IMG/VR virus record: IMGVR_UViG_2711768061_000003
Location: 1 to 41,806 of that record
Length of the DNA: 41,806 nt
Reading direction: 5' to 3' (one strand)
Source: a virus
Lineage: Duplodnaviria > Heunggongvirae > Uroviricota > Caudoviricetes
The position numbers and the translations under genes are program-made. This document shows positions 1,355-33,720 of the stretch, one piece after another. The first letter of the stretch is position 1, and each line of letters opens with the position of its first letter. The notes beneath the pieces were generated by a model. That model saw only the letters and a program-made list of their open reading frames with translations. It had not been told where the DNA came from and did no database searches.

Positions 1355-3142
1355 ATGGAACTGAAATACAGACCCGAAATTGATGGGTTGAGAACATTAG
1401 CTGTTTTACCTGTTATCTTTTTTCATGCAGGTGTTCAATGGATTCCTGGCGGCTTTCTTGGAGTAGATGTTTTTTTTGTTATTAGTGGTTTTTTAATTAC
1501 CAGCATTTTGCTGAAAGAATGCAGCAATAGAACATTTACATTCTCTGGGTTTTATGAGAGAAGGGTTCGTAGAATTGCGCCTGCATTAATTCTAATGACA
1601 TCAGTAATATTCATTATATCATTATTTATGATGGTTCCATATGACCTAAAGAATCTAGGCCAATCAGTTGTTGCAACAATTTTTTCAGCAAACAATATAT
1701 TATTGTACTTAACGTCAGGATATTGGTCTACAGCATCTGAATTTAAACCATTGTATCACACATGGAGTCTTGCTGTAGAAGAACAGTATTATCTTGTAGC
1801 CCCTGTAATAATATATATAATTTACTCAATAAATCATAATAAACTAATAAAGAATAGTTTTATGTTTTTACTGGTAATATCAATTGCCAGTTTTTTATAT
1901 GCAACAATTACAACAGTGCATAATATGGAGTTTTCATTTCTTATGCTCCCTTCAAGGGCGTGGGAGATTGCTCTTGGTGGGGTTGCCGCTATTGCGCACT
2001 ATAAAATAAAAATAAAAAGTAACATCTTATCATACCTTGGTTTTTTATTGATAATATCAAGTTACTTCCTTGTGAATGGTAAAAAATCACACCCTGGATT
2101 TGAAACATTATTTCCAGTTCTTGGTGCATGTTTGTTTTTAATGCATTCAAATGCATCTAAAGGAATTGGAAAGATCATGTCAATAAAACCAATTGTGTTA
2201 TGTGGCATGATAAGTTATTCGCTATACCTTTGGCATCAACCTGTTTTTGCATTTATAAGATTAAACTCAAAATTTGAACCGTCAACAACATATTTTATCG
2301 CATCCATTCCTTTAATTTTTATTATATCGTGGATGTCTTATGTTTTTGTAGAAAAACCATTCAGAAACAAGAGAAAAACATCTACAAAAAAAATCTTATC
2401 ATATACATTAGCATTTTCGTTGGTGTTATCAGCATCAGGAATTTTGATGCACAAAACATATGGATTGCAAAATGTCAGGCCTGATCTTGCATATGGAGGA
2501 AATCCACAGGAGTATGTGGATACCCCGAAGAAATTAAAGAATATTGAGTTCTCAGACAATGGAAAGAAAATATTAATCATGGGTAACTCATATGCGAGAG
2601 ATTTAATTAATGCAATATCTACAAAGATTAAAACAAATGATCTTAATATTGTATATTTTGAGGGTGGATGTGATTGGTCAATAGATAATAAAAATAAATT
2701 AGATTACTACTTGAATGACTCAGACATTATTTTATATTCGGAGAATTGGGGTGCAGGCGACTATAATAATAACGTTGAAAAGTTAAAACACTGTTACGAT
2801 TACATAAAGTCAAAAACAACTGCAAAAATGTACTTGATTGGCACAAAAAACTTCGGGTATAACAATAACTTTGCTGTTAACCTGTCTCTTAATGACAGAG
2901 TTTTAGCAAAAACATACCCGCTATCAAGATATATAGAGTTTAACAATAAGGCGAAAATGATTTTTGGCGATGACTACATAGATTTGTTTGACCTTATAAA
3001 AGACAACAATGGAATGGTTAGAGTTTTTGATGAGAATGGCAAATTTTTATCATATGATGCAAACCATCTAACGAAATATGGAGCAAGTTACATTGGAGAA
3101 GTCTTAGACAAAAAAACAGACTTACTTCAATCTTTGAAATAA
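1355..3142 (+). CDS. membrane O-acetyltransferase (acyltransferase-3 family N-terminal domain with SGNH-like C-terminal domain); likely O-antigen or polysaccharide modifying moron
   Basis: 595-aa ORF; N-terminal motifs typical of acyltransferase-3 (DGLRTLAVLPVIFFHAG, VDVFFVISGFLIT); multiple hydrophobic segments followed by a soluble C-terminal domain; markedly AT-rich versus neighbouring genes; sits in the int-tailspike moron slot. Confidence 0.8.
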   Translation: MELKYRPEIDGLRTLAVLPVIFFHAGVQWIPGGFLGVDVFFVISGFLITSILLKECSNRTFTFSGFYERRVRRIAPALILMTSVIFIISLFMMVPYDLKNLGQSVVATIFSANNILLYLTSGYWSTASEFKPLYHTWSLAVEEQYYLVAPVIIYIIYSINHNKLIKNSFMFLLVISIASFLYATITTVHNMEFSFLMLPSRAWEIALGGVAAIAHYKIKIKSNILSYLGFLLIISSYFLVNGKKSHPGFETLFPVLGACLFLMHSNASKGIGKIMSIKPIVLCGMISYSLYLWHQPVFAFIRLNSKFEPSTTYFIASIPLIFIISWMSYVFVEKPFRNKRKTSTKKILSYTLAFSLVLSASGILMHKTYGLQNVRPDLAYGGNPQEYVDTPKKLKNIEFSDNGKKILIMGNSYARDLINAISTKIKTNDLNIVYFEGGCDWSIDNKNKLDYYLNDSDIILYSENWGAGDYNNNVEKLKHCYDYIKSKTTAKMYLIGTKNFGYNNNFAVNLSLNDRVLAKTYPLSRYIEFNNKAKMIFGDDYIDLFDLIKDNNGMVRVFDENGKFLSYDANHLTKYGASYIGEVLDKKTDLLQSLK

Positions 3143-3175
3143 AATATATAATTTATTAGTCGCTCCCCAAAAAAT

Positions 3176-7803: not shown

Positions 7804-8298
7804 GTGTCTGATTCTATGAGTTACGCTGTGCTAGTTGCCGCAACTCTATTTCTGGGGATAGGGTTGCAGATTGCGTGGTTCTTTTTTTCTAGTTTTATTA
7901 AACGTAAAAGAATTGAATCAAGGATATCTGAGATTTCTATTGCTATAGGGAAAAATGCTGAAAATCCAGAGAATGAGGCCTACGCACTGAATTACCTTAA
8001 AGAAAAGTTTTCCCCTGAAAAATTTGAAAACAGAATTACTGATGCTCTTGGATTGGTAATATCAGTAATTCATATGCCACTAAGTTTGCTGATAACAGTG
8101 TGGTACTTCGCCATGATCGCCGGAAGAATATTTGGTTTCATGAATATAGAGCCTGTAGTTCTTTGGGTTCCAATGATACTGCAATTGTTGTTAAGCGTTG
8201 CTATCTTTATTTTTTCTGTTTTTATAAAAATTGTCTTCGGAAGATACCCCGGAGAAGCGAAGGGATTTAATAAAGAATTCATAAAAACTATAAAATAA
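7804..8298 (+). CDS. small inner-membrane protein, possible SieA-like superinfection exclusion protein
   Basis: ORF with 3-4 predicted hydrophobic helices ([54 protein letters not shown]); GTG at 7804 is preceded by AAGAGG with 5-nt spacing (alternative ATG at 7816); occupies the slot between mnt and the gp16-like gene where P22 carries sieA. Confidence 0.55.
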
Positions 8299-8320
8299 AT
8301 GCCGTCCTTGGCTTACAGTG

Positions 8321-27578: not shown

Positions 27579-28102
27579 GCCGCCCTCCTGACGCCCTGCC
27601 CGATCGCCATCAATGCCGCTTTGGATACGGTAGTAAACATCCGTCGAGGACTGATGAACGGTCGCCAAATCAGCAGCATGGAACCTTTGCTGTTTCCCTT
27701 CTTCTCCAGCCCTGTCGATGGTTCGATAAAATTAATCCGTCCATCAGTAATGATGCGAACTTCGTCAACACTCTCCAGAGCCTTGCTGAACCATCCGACA
27801 GACATATCCTCTGGCACAAGCATCACTATCGTCTGTCGCTGTTGTATGCACTGCTCAGCGGCTTTTTCCACCCACGGCCTGATATTGCTGTACGGTGGGT
27901 TATTCCAGATTGCACCGTGGCTTACCCACTCAGAATTGAGTGCGTCGTCGGCCTCAGTTAGCCAGTGAGCACACAGAGCATTTTTGTCGCTCGCTGCCGA
28001 ATCCAGCCAGAATCCAAACTCAATATCCAGTGCATCAAAAAGCCAAAGCGGCGTTTGCCAGCAGTCCTTGTCGTGTGCTGGCGTATTTGATTTGATAGTC
28101 AT
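27575..28102 (-). CDS. DNA N6-adenine methyltransferase (phage Dam family)
   Basis: Product begins [25 protein letters not shown] and contains the NPPY catalytic motif; start at internal Met overlapping the ninB stop (ATGA). Confidence 0.8.
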
Positions 28103-28539
28103 GCAGCCCGATCTCCCCATCGCGCTTTCCACTCCAGAGCCAGTCGCGCTTCGTCTGACCACTTAACGCCACGCTCTGTACCGAATGCCTGTATAAGCTC
28201 TAATAGCTCCGCAAATTCGCTTACACGCATCCTGCTGGTTGACTGGCCTATTACCACAAAGCCATTCCCGGCAAGGTTAGGAACAACGTCCTGCTGCTTT
28301 AATGCTGCGGTAAACACACACTTCCAGCTTTCTGCATCCAGCCAGCGACCATGCCATTCAACCTGACGAGAGACGTCACCTAAGCAGGCCCATAGCTTCC
28401 TGTTTTGGTCTAAGCTGCGGTTGCGTTCCTGAATGGTTACTACGATTGGTTTGGTTGGGTCTGGAAGGATTTGCTGTACTGCGTGAATAGCGTTTTGCTG
28501 ATGTGCTGGGGATCGAATTTCAAAGGTTAGTTTTTTCAT
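28099..28539 (-). CDS. ninB: NinB (recombination protein, Orf family)
   Basis: 146-aa product, same length as lambda NinB, with strong similarity as recalled. Confidence 0.85.
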   Translation of the reverse strand: MKKLTFEIRSPAHQQNAIHAVQQILPDPTKPIVVTIQERNRSLDQNRKLWACLGDVSRQVEWHGRWLDAESWKCVFTAALKQQDVVPNLAGNGFVVIGQSTSRMRVSEFAELLELIQAFGTERGVKWSDEARLALEWKARWGDRAA

Positions 28540-28732
28540 GACTTCCCTCTCTAACAGATTTCAGGTTATTCCACTCCGTTACCGCACTGCGATAATTCGC
28601 GGCCGCCACAACAGCGTGGTTAGCGCAGTAGATTTGGCACCCGTTCTCCATGTCGAATATTGTCGGTGATTTTCCGCATTTACATTTTTTGGCACGCGGT
28701 GCGTCTGAACACATTCCGTTAACGGTGTCCAT
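28520..28732 (-). CDS. small Cys-rich hypothetical protein
   Basis: 70-aa ORF with C-x8-C-x-C and C-x3-C spacing; overlaps the ninB start by 20 nt. Confidence 0.45.
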   Translation of the reverse strand: MDTVNGMCSDAPRAKKCKCGKSPTIFDMENGCQIYCANHAVVAAANYRSAVTEWNNLKSVREGSHEKTNL

Positions 28733-28816
28733 CAGGCTCCCCCTCGTTCTTAATCCAATAAAAAAGGGCTACTGTGTAAATAGCCCCTGTTATTAGCTCA
28801 GTGATGTAGATGGTCA

Positions 28817-30079
28817 TCAGAATCCTCCTTTCTTCTTGGACTGCGGTTCCTCGCGTTCACGGCGGCGCATTTCAGCAGACTGTTGGTCTGTGTCATAAAT
28901 AGCGCCATTTGCCTGAATGCAATACACCGTGCCGGTATTGCCATGACGATTGAGACGAAGGATTAGTTCAGTTTCACCAGGTGGAACACTGTCATCAAAA
29001 GCGCCTTCACGATGGATCCCGACCCAATAATCGCAATCCTGTTCAATCTGCCCTGTATCTCGTGAGTCACTTGGTAATGGGCGTTTATTGGTTCTGCTTT
29101 CCAGTGCGCGGTTAAGCTGTGTCAGAAGCACAACAACGCAATCAAGCTCTTTGGCAAGGTTCTTCAGTCCTTTGGTGATCATGCCGTAAGCAAGGTCGTT
29201 GCGATCGGCCTTCTCAGCGGTCATTAGTGTCAGGTAATCGACCAGAATCATGCCAACACATCCTTTTTCTCGCTTGATTCGACGGCTTTCGCTGACGATT
29301 TGAGCCAGAGATAATCCCGGCGTGTCGTCGATGTAAAGCAGGTCGATTTCACTCAAGCGATTGGCTGTTTCGATCGCCCTGTTGAAGTCACCATCGTAAT
29401 CACCCTGATAGCCGTCATCAGCGTCATTTGTCGCCGGAAGGTAAAAAATATTCGGGTTAACACCAGACTTCTGCCCTACCAGTTTTTCCAGTATCTGGTC
29501 ACCAGGCATTTCAAGGCTGAACATCAGAGCGGGCTTTTTCTCATGCACTGCGCAGTTGATTGCCATCTGGCTGTATAGCGTCGTTTTCCCCATCTTAGGG
29601 CGAGCGCCAATGACAAACAGAGAGCCTTTCACCAGACCTTTCGGTGACAGCATCCTGTCCAGCGATGGGATCCCTGTGCTCATTCCTCGTTGTTCACCTG
29701 ACGGGTCAAATCGCTTCTCAAGGTCGCTAACCCAGTCTTCCATGACCTCACCAAATGAGCGAAGGCCGCGACGCGATCCGGTTTTTGCATGGTCTGTCAG
29801 TTGCGTGAAAATCGCCTGAATAGCTTCGTACTTCTGCGTCGCAGTCATTCCGTTGCGGGAATAGAGCAATTCCGTCGCTTCAGTCATGCGGTTGATGGCG
29901 TAGCGTTCCATTGCGGTTTCGCGAACCTGCATTGCATAGGCAACGATGTTTGCGGCGCTTGGCGTGTTCTTTGCGATCTCAGCGATATAAGCAAAACCGC
30001 CAACAGACACCGTTAACGATTTGCGCTCCAGTTCATCGAAAAGCGTCAGGCCATCTACTGGCTTTTGCTCCCGGTGCAT
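28817..30079 (-). CDS. replicative DNA helicase (DnaB-like, P22 gene 12-like)
   Basis: 420-aa ORF with Walker A (GARPKMGKTT) and DnaB-type motifs; an in-frame stop 5 codons upstream fixes the start. Confidence 0.9.
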   Translation of the reverse strand: MHREQKPVDGLTLFDELERKSLTVSVGGFAYIAEIAKNTPSAANIVAYAMQVRETAMERYAINRMTEATELLYSRNGMTATQKYEAIQAIFTQLTDHAKTGSRRGLRSFGEVMEDWVSDLEKRFDPSGEQRGMSTGIPSLDRMLSPKGLVKGSLFVIGARPKMGKTTLYSQMAINCAVHEKKPALMFSLEMPGDQILEKLVGQKSGVNPNIFYLPATNDADDGYQGDYDGDFNRAIETANRLSEIDLLYIDDTPGLSLAQIVSESRRIKREKGCVGMILVDYLTLMTAEKADRNDLAYGMITKGLKNLAKELDCVVVLLTQLNRALESRTNKRPLPSDSRDTGQIEQDCDYWVGIHREGAFDDSVPPGETELILRLNRHGNTGTVYCIQANGAIYDTDQQSAEMRRREREEPQSKKKGGF

Positions 30080-30172
30080 TCTGTCTGGACGCGCTCACTG
30101 CTGTCATCATCCAGAAGCAATCCACCAATCACCGCCTGCTCTGCCTCGATGCTATGGGGCGGCGCATAAAAA

Positions 30173-31063
30173 TTATCGGTCATCGTGTTCACCCTCACGA
30201 ACTTTCAGGTAGGTATTATCGTTAAGCAGGAAATCAAATCCCTTTTTGTGCCAGACAGTTCCGCGTTGATGGTTTGGACGCTCTTCGAACATCCATCGGC
30301 AATTTTCGCCTACGTAGCTCAAATAATTTCTCCAGTCCTGCATCGTGAACCCATGCCCGTCAAGCTGGCGGGTTATCACTCCGGCTTTGCGCCAGAACGT
30401 TCGGATCTGGTTTTTACGCTTGTCATTCAGTGCGCGGATTCTTGGCGCTTCAGGAAGGATTTCGTGGTAAGCATCGACAACATCCTGACAGCTAACGGAA
30501 GGTTTTTTCTTGTCAGACTTTTTGTCTGCTGTGGCACTCTCTAATACGTCAGTATTAGAGATATTATTTATATTATTGTTTATGGACAACCGTTGGACAA
30601 CCGTTGGACAATCTCCGCTGAGAGCCGCGCCATTACTGGTGTTTGCGTTGGACAACCGTTGGACAACCGTTGGACAATTTTTTGCCTGAAAATCGTCATA
30701 TTTAACGATTGTAAACAGGCTAAATTTCTTCCCCATCGAGCAAATATTAAGCATCCCTTTCGACTCAAAAGTCCGTAATAAGCTCCGAACTTTGTTGTCG
30801 GGGATGAATGTTTCTCTGACCAGCGACGGGCGTCCAGTTATCATCTGACCGCGATCAACAGTTATCGGACCGATATCCGTATTGACGACAGTAGATTCGT
30901 GATTAGCCTTGAGGATTAAGTGAAGCCAAAGATGTACTGCCTGAGAGTCCTTATAGAGCCTGCTGTCCATAAACTGGCGGTGTATAGAGACATACCCCAT
31001 ACTGGATGCCTCCTGATGTTGTACAGGGTTATGCCTGTAATCAGCTAACTTAACGACGCCCAT
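30173..31063 (-). CDS. replication initiation protein (lambda O / P22 gp18-like) containing the origin iterons
   Basis: 296-aa ORF upstream of the helicase; nucleotide iterons inside the gene produce duplicated peptide CPTVVQRLSN. Confidence 0.8.
   Translation of the reverse strand: MGVVKLADYRHNPVQHQEASSMGYVSIHRQFMDSRLYKDSQAVHLWLHLILKANHESTVVNTDIGPITVDRGQMITGRPSLVRETFIPDNKVRSLLRTFESKGMLNICSMGKKFSLFTIVKYDDFQAKNCPTVVQRLSNANTSNGAALSGDCPTVVQRLSINNNINNISNTDVLESATADKKSDKKKPSVSCQDVVDAYHEILPEAPRIRALNDKRKNQIRTFWRKAGVITRQLDGHGFTMQDWRNYLSYVGENCRWMFEERPNHQRGTVWHKKGFDFLLNDNTYLKVREGEHDDR
30584..30679. repeat. replication origin iterons: two clusters of the 11-bp direct repeat GGACAACCGTT inside the initiator gene
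   Basis: Tandem copies at 30584-30613 and 30650-30679 with adjacent AT-rich stretch (30560-30583); arrangement analogous to lambda ori inside O. Confidence 0.7.
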
Positions 31064-31211
31064 GTTTCACTCCTGCTTTGGCTAGTCTGTAAACACCAAC
31101 AAGGCGCTCTGCGAACGCCCTGTTATTTGCTGCGGCTACCACTAATCCCTCAGGTGAATCAGGGTGTCGAATCTCTTCTTTTTCCTGGTATTTCTTACGA
31201 CGTTTTGTCAT
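31050..31211 (-). CDS. small basic hypothetical protein between cII-like and initiator genes
   Basis: 53-aa ORF (MTKRRKKYQEKEEIRHPDSPEG...) below the track length cut-off; ATG preceded by AGGAG with 5-nt spacing; 3' end overlaps the initiator start. Confidence 0.35.
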   Translation of the reverse strand: MTKRRKKYQEKEEIRHPDSPEGLVVAAANNRAFAERLVGVYRLAKAGVKHGRR

Positions 31212-31243
31212 AATGACTCCTGTGGATTGATCCAGTAATTCCC

Positions 31244-31540
31244 TCAGAATTGCATATCAATTTGCTTAGAGTCCCCGGCGGCCACCGGGGATTTTTTCTT
31301 TGTGATTTCATCAAGCGCATACTTAAAAGCCCTGCTAATCGGACTGATGTCTGATGCCATTCCGAAAGCACACAAGACCGAAGCAATAAATCTCCAGTCC
31401 GTTCTGCTTATCTTCGATTCATGACAGCCAATCATCTTTGCCAGACCGCGCTGGGTAAGCGTTGACAGGTTGATGAGTAAATCAGTTTCAGCGCGATCAA
31501 TTTCTCGCTGTGTTGGCTTGCTGTAGCTTGCTTGTGCCAT
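31244..31540 (-). CDS. CII-like transcriptional activator (P22 c1 equivalent)
   Basis: 98-aa ORF immediately downstream of cro; helix-turn-helix segment (LAKMIGCHESKISR) and position as lambda cII. Confidence 0.75.
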   Translation of the reverse strand: MAQASYSKPTQREIDRAETDLLINLSTLTQRGLAKMIGCHESKISRTDWRFIASVLCAFGMASDISPISRAFKYALDEITKKKSPVAAGDSKQIDMQF

Positions 31541-31609
31541 TTGTTAATTTACCTATATTGATATTGAGTTATAGCGGCACACCCAATGGATTTGCCGCTG
31601 ATGTTTGCT

Positions 31610-31649
31610 CACCCGGTTAGAGGTGAAAGGCCAGAACTGTTAAAGAGCA
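31610..31649 (-). promoter_or_regulatory. putative nutR (boxA-like TGCTCTTTAACA plus boxB-like hairpin)
   Basis: Minus-strand boxA-like sequence followed by hairpin TCACC-TCTAACC-GGGTGA between cro and the cII-like gene. Confidence 0.45.
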
Positions 31650-31655
31650 ATTTGC

Positions 31656-31841
31656 TTATGCCGCTTGGCGGTAAGCACTTTCTTGATACTTCAGGGCGCC
31701 AGCTGTAACGATTTCCAATCGATAGGCGTCTTTCTCTGGGATAACTTCTTTCCACTGAGAGACTGCTGCATCGCTAATGCCTAGTGCTTTAGCAACAGCA
31801 CGCTGGGTTCCGAAGTGGTCAATAACATCTTTTTTGTACAT
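31656..31841 (-). CDS. cro: Cro repressor (P22 type)
   Basis: 61-aa product MYKKDVIDHFGTQRAVAKALGISDAAVSQWKEVIPEKDAYRLEIVTAGALKYQ... essentially identical to P22 Cro as recalled. Confidence 0.95.
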   Translation of the reverse strand: MYKKDVIDHFGTQRAVAKALGISDAAVSQWKEVIPEKDAYRLEIVTAGALKYQESAYRQAA

Positions 31842-31921
31842 AGACTCGCTCCGAAATTAAAGAACACTTAAATTATCCACCAAAGGAATCTTAAGTCAAG
31901 TTTATTTAAGATGTCTTAACT
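31842..31921. promoter_or_regulatory. OR operator region with divergent PR/PRM promoters (P22-type 18-bp operators)
   Basis: Sites ATTAAAGAACACTTAAAT (31856-31873) and ATTTAAGATGTCTTAACT (31903-31920) fit the P22 operator pattern ANTNAAG-N4-CTTNANT; a weaker third site lies between. Confidence 0.75.
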
Positions 31922-32572
31922 ATGAATACACAACTGATGGGTGAGCGTATTCGCGCTCGCAGAAAAGAACTCAAGATTAGGCAGGCTGCCCTTGGCAAGA
32001 TGGTTGGCGTGTCTAATGTTGCTATTTCCCAATGGGAGCGATCTGAAACTGAGCCCAATGGCGAAAACCTATTGGCCTTAGCCAAGGCTTTGCAGTGCTC
32101 CCCTGATTACCTGTTGAAAGGAGAGGATAGTCTTTCAAACATTGCCTATCACAGCAGGCATGATCCAAGAGGTTCGTATCCTCTAATTAGTTGGGTAAGC
32201 GCAGGATGTTGGATGGAAGCTGTAGAGCCATATCATAGGCGTGCAATAGATAACTGGTACGACACAACGGTAGATTGTTCTGAAGACTCTTTTTGGCTCG
32301 ACGTTAAAGGCGATTCAATGACTGCCCCGGCAGGACTGAGTATTCCTGAGGGGATGATTATTCTCGTCGACCCAGAAGTCGAACCACGTAATGGAAAGCT
32401 GGTAGTCGCCAAACTTGAAGGAGAAAACGAGGCGACATTCAAAAAGTTAGTTATTGATGCCGGTAGAAAATTCCTGAAACCACTCAATCCACAATACCCA
32501 ATGATTGAAATCAATGGGAACTGTAAAATCATTGGCGTTGTCGTTGATGCCAAGCTAGCAAACCTTCCTTAA
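31922..32572 (+). CDS. c2: C2 repressor (P22 immC, LexA-like autocleaving repressor)
   Basis: 216-aa product with N-terminal HTH (QAALGKMVGVSNVAISQWERS) and C-terminal S24 peptidase-like domain (GDSM...K), matching P22 C2 as recalled. Confidence 0.95.
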   Translation: MNTQLMGERIRARRKELKIRQAALGKMVGVSNVAISQWERSETEPNGENLLALAKALQCSPDYLLKGEDSLSNIAYHSRHDPRGSYPLISWVSAGCWMEAVEPYHRRAIDNWYDTTVDCSEDSFWLDVKGDSMTAPAGLSIPEGMIILVDPEVEPRNGKLVVAKLEGENEATFKKLVIDAGRKFLKPLNPQYPMIEINGNCKIIGVVVDAKLANLP

Positions 32573-32596
32573 GGGGCTTTCGCCCCTTTTTTATTT
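32571..32596 (+). terminator. rho-independent terminator after c2
   Basis: Hairpin AAGGGGC-TTTC-GCCCCTT followed by a T-run. Confidence 0.6.
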
Positions 32597-32659
32597 CCCG
32601 TTAAAAATCAAAGACAAACTAAATTCACGTCCATAAAATTAAGTTTTCTTCAAAAATGC

Positions 32660-32700
32660 ACTTGACCAATAAATTAAGAAGTCTTAAATTTAAGCCATCA
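32660..32700 (+). promoter_or_regulatory. OL/PL region (P22-type operator AATTAAGAAGTCTTAAAT overlapping a TTGACC -35 element)
   Basis: Operator matching the same 18-bp pattern as OR; TTGACC at 32662-32667 with an AT-rich -10 candidate about 17 bp downstream. Confidence 0.55.
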
Positions 32701-32736
32701 GCAGGACGCTGGAAGCCAAACGGAACAGATTGGCAG

Positions 32737-32776
32737 GCTCTTTAACATCGACGGACTCTCAACCTAACCGTTGAGA
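32737..32776 (+). promoter_or_regulatory. putative nutL (boxA-like GCTCTTTAACA plus boxB-like hairpin TCTCAAC-CTAACC-GTTGAGA)
   Basis: Same boxA-like core as the putative nutR; the hairpin loop shares CTAACC with the nutR hairpin. Confidence 0.5.
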
Positions 32777-32886
32777 CCAGAACTTGAGTGGTTTTGGGGA
32801 TGGCGCGAATTGCAGCTGCAAGACAGCGATCGAGAAGATAAGCACCTCGACGCGTCATGCGCCAAAGCCACTTAAAGGAGACCATC

Positions 32887-33159
32887 ATGGTAACCATTGT
32901 CTGGAAAGAATCCAAAGGTACGGCAAAAAGCCGCTACAAAGCTCGCAGAGCAGAACTTATTGCCGAGCGACGCAGTAATGAAGCACTGGCGCGAAAAATT
33001 GCGCTAAAGCTCTCTGGTTGCGTCAGAGCAGACAAAGCAGCATCACTAGGAAGCCTTTGCTGCAAGAAGGCAGATGAATGCAGTGGAAGTATTTGCCTGC
33101 CAAACGTAGCTATTTACGCGGCAGGCTACCGGAAATCAAAACAACTGACGGCGAGGTGA
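32887..33159 (+). CDS. N-like antiterminator (P22 gene 24-like)
   Basis: 90-aa basic product with arginine-rich N-terminus (GTAKSRYKARRAELIAERR) and C-terminus YAAGYRKSKQLTAR resembling P22 gp24 as recalled; AGGAG RBS upstream of the chosen ATG. Confidence 0.8.
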   Translation: MVTIVWKESKGTAKSRYKARRAELIAERRSNEALARKIALKLSGCVRADKAASLGSLCCKKADECSGSICLPNVAIYAAGYRKSKQLTAR

Positions 33160-33180
33160 CGATCCCCCGCCGTCGAGGAA

Positions 33181-33720
33181 CTAAATTAGCTCATCAGCTT
33201 TACCAGCAAAGCGCATATAACACTCATGGAACCAGACGTCAGGTATAACAAATTTCTCTTTACCTGACGCGCTGTAAGTCACACCTGAGCGATGGAGAAG
33301 GCCTTTTCTCATAAGAGATAAAGCGACCGGATCGCCGTGCTTAAGTACGATTTTGTTATTTGCCATAACAGCAAATGCTAAAACCTCTTTTTCCTGAATA
33401 CTCAGAGAATTGAACAGGCGCTCAGTCTCCACAATTACTTTAGCCTCATCTCTCTTACTGAGATATTTTTTATATCTGTCTGAAGATGCCAGAAATATAA
33501 ACTCCATCACCCTGTTCAGAACATAACTGATACACAAAAGCATTGCGTAATACATCCAGTGATCTGGAAGTATTTCTGGGTTCCTTATATCTACCCACTC
33601 TTTAATTGATGCAGGGGTGATTATTATCAAGGCAATTAAAATAATAAGCATATGAATTAACTGTTGTAGCGTAAGACCACGCAGGAAGAAACGTAATAGT
33701 TCCTGCCACCAGTTACTCAT
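33181..33720 (-). CDS. sieB: superinfection exclusion protein B (SieB-like), membrane protein
   Basis: 179-aa ORF with two N-terminal hydrophobic helices, located antisense within the PL operon next to the N-like gene. Confidence 0.65.
   Translation of the reverse strand: MSNWWQELLRFFLRGLTLQQLIHMLIILIALIIITPASIKEWVDIRNPEILPDHWMYYAMLLCISYVLNRVMEFIFLASSDRYKKYLSKRDEAKVIVETERLFNSLSIQEKEVLAFAVMANNKIVLKHGDPVALSLMRKGLLHRSGVTYSASGKEKFVIPDVWFHECYMRFAGKADELI

Follow-up and report, generated by a model that had tools for sequence, protein, structure and literature searches.

In phage SPP1 the initiator G38P binds the direct repeats of the origin oriL, which lie in its own gene and adjoin an AT-rich unwinding element, and theta replication from oriL has been reconstituted in vitro (PMC6316719). 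The origin of lambda also lies in the initiator gene, between the parts that encode the N- and C-terminal domains; iterons, AT-rich tract and palindrome follow each other in that order along rightward transcription, and the N-terminal domain and the iterons jointly determine specificity. In P22 an origin is annotated within the initiator gene 18. Here we describe the corresponding locus in a 41,806 nt stretch of viral DNA (IMG/VR record IMGVR_UViG_2711768061_000003, positions 1 to 41,806; hereafter the window), in which two arrays of 11-bp repeats lie inside the gene for a replication initiator. The window is a mosaic P22-like Escherichia coli prophage or phage, for which deposited phages offer no close full-length match, and the repeats are very probably its vegetative (theta-type) replication origin, placed in that part of the initiator gene that encodes the linker between two domains.

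An origin of this type is already known as a sequence-based prediction from Sf6, HK620 and phage L. The Sf6 record (AF547987) carries in gene 43 a rep_origin feature that maps exactly to 30583-30678 of the window, with the note 'putative; repeat region reminiscent of the phage lambda origin; similar to phage HK620', and a 'putative origin of replication' is likewise marked at the homologous position (gene 18) in the record of phage L. The iterons of phage L were described by Zaworski et al. 2020 (PMC8022706), who gave the iteron as TGTCCAACGGA, and within the literature searched the iteron sequence was found in that phage L genome paper only. The 161-nt origin segment of Sf6 differs from that of the window at two bases, both of them between iteron cores, and phage L has the same layout as the window, with six 11-bp iterons with the core TGTCCAAC in two triplets. 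The element of the window has 99% identity to the one annotated in Sf6 and HK620, and there is no substantive difference between the origin of the window and those of Sf6, HK620 and phage L; what the window adds is P22-type immunity and a helicase gene with a private deletion of 70 bp.

On the + strand the full repeat unit is TGGACAACCGT, which occurs without mismatch at 30583-30593, 30594-30604, 30649-30659 and 30660-30670, and no other site in the window matches the unit, even when one mismatch is allowed. A shortened copy, TGGACAAT, comes after each pair, at 30605-30612 and 30671-30678. The 30-nt arrays that result (30583-30612 and 30649-30678) are identical at 30/30 positions, synonymous positions included, where about 8e-10 exact 30-mer repeat pairs would be expected by chance in 41.8 kb. 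An earlier note on this DNA, made from the letters alone, had seen two triplets of an 11-bp iteron, with GGACAACCGTT as the unit from 30584 and 30650, and had proposed repeat finding as a check. Tandem Repeats Finder (TRF) indeed returns a period of 11 with 100% matches (2.6 and 2.9 copies), so both arrays and the repeat itself are real, but each triplet consists of two full units and a shortened third, the register given was shifted by one base, and the third unit matches it at only 6-7 of 11 positions.

Read along the gene, which lies on the - strand, the unit is TTGTCCAACGG with an 8-bp core, TGTCCAAC, that is present in five of the six units, the sixth reading TGTCCATA; these five hits (1.26 expected) are the only occurrences of the core in the window. 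The starts of the arrays are 66 bp apart (6 x 11) and the six cores fall on a single 11-bp register, at offsets of 0, 11, 22, 66, 77 and 88. The order along the gene is three 11-bp iterons, a 33-nt spacer, three further iterons, a 21-nt AT tract and a palindrome of 10+4+10 nt. SPP1 has a second origin, oriR, whereas no second iteron cluster of the oriR kind is found in the window, and the origin has no DnaA boxes nearby, the closest one being at 31873. Two further signals within the arrays were set aside. Pairing of the two arrays in single-stranded DNA (ssDNA) is treated as incidental because the partial dyad behind it, CAACGGTTG, is missing in phage L and HK022, and promoter-like matches in the iterons (TGGACA...GACAAT, 9/12) are by-products of the repeat.

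The earlier note had described the whole as the lambda-like arrangement of an origin within gene O. This holds for the position and for the order of the parts, all the features of the lambda origin listed above being shared by the window, and lambda also has a palindrome of 12+4+12 nt at the equivalent position. It does not hold for the binding sites, which are not dyad-symmetric sites of ~20 bp: lambda has four internally dyad-symmetric sites of ~19 bp at intervals of 20-24 bp, whereas the window has six 11-bp units arranged head to tail in two triplets. P22 is likewise unlike the window in its iterons, which are ~20 bp long, contain CGGTAAAAC and recur with a period of 23-24; the same periodicity of 23-24 bp is obtained for lambda O as for P22 gene 18. 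In this respect the window is like SPP1 gene 38, where direct repeats with an 11-bp period, followed by an AT-rich tract, begin at gene nt 360, directly after the region for the N-terminal domain.

Both arrays lie inside the initiator open reading frame (ORF) at 30173..31063 (-), as had been stated, where they occupy residues 130-160 of 296, between an N-terminal domain (23-127) that resembles that of G38P and the C-terminal domain (190-296). The peptide CPTVVQRLS is encoded twice; the longer duplicate CPTVVQRLSN reported before fails at its tenth residue, where one copy has N and the other I. A repeated peptide raises the question of whether this is a repeat of the protein, or a slippage-prone linker of low complexity, that has no function as DNA. 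The linker does tolerate the gain and loss of 22 residues (there are alleles of 274, 296 and 318 aa), and it is modelled at low confidence, as would suit such an explanation. Eleven is not a multiple of three, however, so that tandem units fall in three reading frames (TGT CCA ACG / GTT GTC CAA CGG / TTG TCC AAC) and the three copies give three different peptides; as the unit is read in three frames the repetition belongs to the DNA, and the peptide is its consequence.

The pattern of variation among relatives bears on the same question. In 39 distinct variants of the TGTCCAAC group, drawn from 80 IMG/VR loci, only 3 of 48 core columns are variable against 70 of 99 in linker, spacer and flanking sequence (Fisher p 2e-14), the latter made up of 13/15 inter-core columns, 24/32 in the spacer and 33/52 in flanking coding sequence. 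The contrast persists at third codon positions, where 2 of 16 are variable within cores and 24 of 33 elsewhere (p 1e-4); both p-values are illustrative rather than exact, as the variants share ancestry. This comparison shows the iteron cores to be under constraint at the level of DNA, being kept at third codon positions whilst the intervening peptide varies. A repeat of the protein without any role for the DNA is scarcely credible to us, as the frame argument and the third-position constraint exclude it.

Conservation of the layout extends well beyond this group. Six initiator genes whose proteins share 30-80% identity were compared, those of the window, phage L, HK022, Klebsiella ST101-KPC2phi6.1, Enterobacter CobraSix and Erwinia Eho59, and in every one an 11-bp unit forms two triplets at a spacing of 66 bp, behind which come an AT-rich tract and, after it, a palindrome, with no gaps between the arrays in any of them. 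The core itself differs: it is TGTCCAAC in the window and phage L, TTACCAGC in HK022, TGTCCAGC in CobraSix, and TGCCAAC in both Klebsiella phi6.1 and Erwinia Eho59. The linker peptides of the homologues differ as well (CPTVVQRLS, VPADYQQIT, VPTECQQSA and CPADVQPVS), yet the 11-bp periodicity and the spacing are retained, which again does not suit a repeat that is kept for its peptide.

Immediately beyond the second array lies the AT-rich stretch that had also been noticed before, 21 nt at 30561-30581 with 4.8% GC, which is the most AT-rich stretch of the initiator gene and ranks within the top 0.05% of 21-mers in the window for AT content. An AT-rich tract is found at the matching position in every homologue compared, and it is presumed to be the DNA unwinding element. 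Comparable AT-richness (30-mers with GC <=10%) is reached elsewhere in the window only at 1804-3160 and 8202-8300, the first of which includes an AT-rich 18-bp tandem repeat at 1809-1851 (TRF).

Adjoining the AT tract is a palindrome that had not been mentioned in the earlier note; in the direction of the gene it runs from 30561 to 30538 as TCTCTAATAC tgac GTATTAGAGA. As an ssDNA hairpin it has a folding energy of -7.5 kcal/mol (z -5.8). The palindrome exists in eight sequence versions, such as TCTCTTCTAC/GTAGAAGAGA, ACTTACTACC/GGTAGTAAGT and CTCATTAGG/CCTAATGAG, across which nine of its ten pairs have been altered on both sides; 95% of its cells are paired, compared to 30-52% after a shift of the partner by 1-3 columns, a level reached by none of 500 shuffles. 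Such covariation would equally favour a hairpin of RNA, and the hairpin at 30538-30561 followed by TATTATTTAT on the + strand could be an intrinsic terminator or other RNA structure of an antisense transcript, or else an RNA processing site of the rightward transcript. The palindrome passes a simple terminator-like scan on the + strand, and the annotation of phage L has software-predicted terminators there too, on the antisense strand. The stem has only three G-C pairs out of ten, however, there is no convincing antisense promoter upstream, where the sole promoter-like matches (9/12) are those made by the iterons, and the origin of lambda, though of a different kind, has a palindrome at the matching place. 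Rfam finds nothing here either, no family reaching the gathering threshold over 28000-33500. We consider an RNA role for the palindrome unlikely, and it concerns this element only, being compatible with the reading of the whole as an origin.

The earlier note had classed the initiator as O/gp18-like, a label that suits its position, its function and its C-terminal domain but not its N-terminal domain. Over its full length (residues 1-296, against positions 1-292 of 297) the protein matches the profile phrog_345, 'replication initiation O-like', with an E-value of 5.8e-85. Pfam PF04492 (Phage_rep_O), which forms the N-terminal domain of lambda O and of P22 gp18 and scores 5.7e-36 and 6.9e-38 with these two proteins, does not match the initiator even at E-values up to 10 with the N-terminal domain in isolation, and BLASTP finds no similarity between lambda O and the initiator (E 4.6). 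Instead the N-terminal domain resembles that of SPP1 G38P (BLASTP E 8e-13, 28% identity over 111 aa), it is matched by PHROG families of 'DnaD-like helicase loader' proteins (E 1e-23 to 1e-10), and tblastn retrieves 'replisome organizer / DnaD-like' genes of SPP1 and of Bacillus and Staphylococcus phages. Scans of the initiator against Pfam and NCBIfam gave no family, only a sub-threshold match to DUF7376. On this homology we presume that the N-terminal domain is the one that binds the iterons.

The C-terminal domain, presumed to be the part that contacts the helicase, has weak homology to its counterpart in P22 gp18 (E 2e-4). It is unlike the corresponding part of SPP1 G38P, which matches Phg_2220_C (PF09524) at 2e-20, there being no match to this family for either the whole protein of the window or its isolated C-terminal domain; furthermore SPP1 has a separate loader, G39P, whereas in the window the initiator gene abuts the helicase gene. 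As in SPP1, a phage-encoded helicase of the DnaB family is found downstream, and in this the module differs from that of lambda, where O delivers the host DnaB by way of the P protein. An AlphaFold2 model built from an alignment of 16 sequences has a mean pLDDT of 51, with values of 76-90 for the C-terminal domain and below 50 for the N-terminal domain and linker, the low confidence being likely due to the shallow alignment; the best 120 proteins of the homologue search were all at least 72% identical. A Foldseek search of the PDB gave nothing below an E-value of 0.2, and its weak matches, mostly to winged-helix proteins, are not counted as evidence, while no match among PDB sequences came from a profile search.

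The N-terminal domain and the iterons appear to have moved as one. Identity in the N-terminal domain tracks the type of iteron, at 74% between window and phage L, 63% between Klebsiella and Erwinia, and 63% between HK022 and CobraSix. From the palindrome as far as the stop codon HK022 and the window have 100% identical DNA, and the C-terminal domain of HK022 O is correspondingly 100% identical, though identity across the N-terminal domain and the iterons is only 40-75%. It is this break, together with the tracking of iteron type by the N-terminal domain, which indicates that the two travel together, and the suggestion that the origin has an iteron specificity of its own is borne out by the co-variation of the cores with the N-terminal domain. 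All four pairings of two N-terminal types with two C-terminal and partner types have been seen, each time with the origin at the domain junction. One of the genes compared, that of Erwinia phage vB_EhrS_59 (Eho59; locus L007:838-1788), has an N-terminal domain of the window type and its TGCCAAC-core 11-bp iterons fused to a C-terminal domain of the lambda O type (70% identity to lambda O, E 6e-63), and it adjoins a loader gene of the lambda P type. This hybrid shows the two halves of such initiators recombining at the origin.

An 11-bp period also recurs among more distant relatives. It is the top periodicity in 12 of 14 genes with an N-terminal domain of the window type, at gene nt 307-455 and directly behind the region for that domain, though the score is clearly above shuffle controls only in seven distant phages (four of Staphylococcus, SPP1, and those of Vibrio and Shewanella) and lies near the top of the shuffle range in most enterobacterial genes. 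The 11-bp register looks like a trait of this N-terminal domain family. In distant homologues from Staphylococcus, Vibrio and Bacillus phages there are 5-9 tandem 11-bp repeats, for example of AACATCAAAAC or AATCGCAAACG, directly after the domain (loci L091:1227-1396, L093:1134-1300, L094, L096, L097 and L089:1259-1346), and an AT-rich tract that encodes an asparagine-rich peptide lies 3' of these repeats.

Taken together, the conserved layout, the constraint on the cores, the co-variation of cores and N-terminal domain and the homology to SPP1 G38P support, at the level of sequence comparison, the proposal that the origin lies in the initiator gene, which had been put forward already in the earlier note. 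The annotations of Sf6 and phage L and the account of Zaworski et al. 2020 had arrived at this reading independently. In the mechanism that we envisage, the G38P-like N-terminal domains would bind the six head-to-tail TGTCCAAC cores, and as these share one 11-bp register the bound proteins would lie along roughly the same side of the helix and assemble into a nucleoprotein complex. Under strain from this complex the adjacent 21-nt tract of 5% GC would then open, and onto it the C-terminal domain would recruit the phage's own DnaB-type helicase, encoded immediately downstream. The 10+4+10 palindrome would probably aid either opening or the loading of the helicase, whether by forming a hairpin or cruciform or by offering a binding site with dyad symmetry.

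A number of points weigh against this reading. Binding by the initiator, unwinding and the activity of the origin are all things that we infer, and no experiment on an origin of this type was found in the literature searched. The N-terminal domain, with a pLDDT below 50, gave no significant fold match, so that the DNA-binding fold ascribed to it comes from sequence homology. The gene of the partner helicase is frameshifted in the window and the prophage is possibly unable to replicate alone. Finally, variants with three or nine iterons are confined to prophages or metagenome contigs.

It could also be that the repeats are true binding sites of the initiator whose main role is autoregulation, titration or the formation of a roadblock to replication forks or transcription, with the real origin elsewhere. 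SPP1 G38P does bind oriR as well, where fork stalling has been proposed (PMC6316719), and sites that lie within the gene of the protein that binds them could in principle feed back on its expression. It would nevertheless be quite improbable, as there is no second cluster of cores in the window, and as in all homologues the sites are flanked by an AT tract and a co-varying palindrome, which would be needed for unwinding but not for simple titration. Furthermore, according to Hilliker (1981), as cited in PMC8022706, phage L genes cannot singly replace genes 18 and 12 of P22, and the replication region of phage L is replaceable only as a whole, which argues that the origin lies within the module.

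The number of iterons is not fixed among initiators of this type. It changes in steps of 66 bp (22 codons), with alleles of 274, 296 and 318 aa that carry one, two and three triplets, respectively, and alleles of all three kinds occur in prophages of E. coli, Shigella and Salmonella (variant loci L058:1501-2454 and L060:1501-2322; proteins P0001 of 318 aa, P0036 of 274 aa and P0108 of 277 aa). No allele with one or three triplets is found in isolated phages, every deposited isolate of the type having two. The linker that the origin encodes appears to tolerate change. The features of the locus are collected in Table 1.

Table 1. Features of the putative origin, the initiator and its partner gene, with positions in the window.
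Feature	Position	Strand	Basis
Replication initiator gene, 296 aa, of Sf6 gp43 / HK620 / HK75 'O' type	30173..31063	-	nt identity, phrog_345
N-terminal domain segment, residues 23-127, presumed iteron-binding domain	30683..30997	-	BLASTP to SPP1 G38P; PHROG
Iteron array A, iterons 1-3 in gene order, TTGTCCAACGG x2 + TTGTCCAACGC	30647..30679	-	Repeat analysis, TRF; within Sf6 rep_origin span
Spacer between arrays, 33 nt	30614..30646	-	Variable sequence, fixed length
Iteron array B, iterons 4-6, TTGTCCAACGG x2 + TTGTCCATAAA	30581..30613	-	Repeat analysis, TRF
AT-rich tract, presumed DNA unwinding element, encodes NNNINN	30562..30580		GC content; kept in homologues
Perfect palindrome, TCTCTAATAC-nnnn-GTATTAGAGA, 10-bp arms, 4-nt loop	30538..30561		Fold, covariation
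C-terminal domain segment, residues 190-296, presumed helicase-interaction domain	30176..30496	-	pLDDT 76-90; P22 gp18 homology
DnaB-like replicative helicase gene, partner of the initiator, with 70-bp deletion	28817..30198	-	Pfam DnaB_C

The initiator ORF is 99.3-99.7% identical at the nucleotide level to the 'O' genes of Sf6 (gene 43), HK75, HK106, mEp234 and IME10, and the replication module was found in 379 of 5,426 complete E. coli genomes. Downstream the ORF overlaps the DnaB-like helicase gene, whose product has both a DnaB N-terminal domain and a DnaB_C domain (Pfam, 2.1e-60). Upstream there are a small conserved ORF (phrog_1331), a gene of the CII family and a repressor like C2 of P22, and this order of c1, a small ORF like orf48, initiator and DnaB-like helicase is shared with P22. 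An immunity region of the P22 type lies at 31922-32572 (+), 31656-31841 (-) and 31244-31540 (-), in which the C2 repressor is 94% identical to that of P22. The combination of P22-type immunity with a replication module of the Sf6/HK620 type, which is not that of P22, is a typical mosaic joint of lambdoid phages.

The helicase gene lacks 70 bp that are found in Sf6 and phage L, with the junction at ~30083 (within 29900-30200). The deletion lies between GTCCAGA and CAGAATGC, with a short direct repeat of CCAGA at its ends, and it shifts the frame and splits the gene into ORFs of 47 and 420 aa. The junction was not found in the 89 loci examined, and the 12 best E. coli genome matches listed all span 921 bp and not 851 bp. 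Either the prophage may be unable to replicate alone or the assembly may be wrong at this point.

A unit resembling the oop antisense RNA is also present at 31226-31295 (+), antisense to the cII-like gene at 31244-31540. Its promoter and 5' sequence, CATAATGACTCCTGTGGATTGATCCAGT, are the conserved ones of oop in lambdoid phages and are found in P22 as well, and at 31268-31295 it has a strong hairpin of the terminator kind, AGAGTCCCCGGCGGCCACCGGGGATTTTTT; Rfam has no family match at 31226-31295.

The origin is an ordinary element for such a genome, and the value of its description lies in a clean annotation of origin, specificity module and partner helicase in a mosaic P22-like prophage, with the usual label corrected in that the origin-binding domain is like that of SPP1 G38P and not like that of lambda O. 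More tentatively, and with somewhat more doubt than confidence, head-to-tail 11-bp iterons, an AT tract and a hairpin maintained by compensatory change, all within the linker, may be a common grammar of origins for G38P-like initiators. On this view the N-terminal domain with its iterons would form one cassette and the C-terminal domain with the helicase another, each free to recombine without the other, the hairpin would be selected for its structure as the site of helicase loading or priming, and the presence of three, six or nine iterons would tune the strength of the origin or its incompatibility. If true, this grammar would span phages from those of Bacillus and Staphylococcus to the lambdoid phages of enterobacteria. 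The 11-bp register, the covariation of the palindrome, the matrix of domain swaps and the alleles that differ in iteron number could guide the first experiments on what is a common type of origin in enterobacterial prophages.

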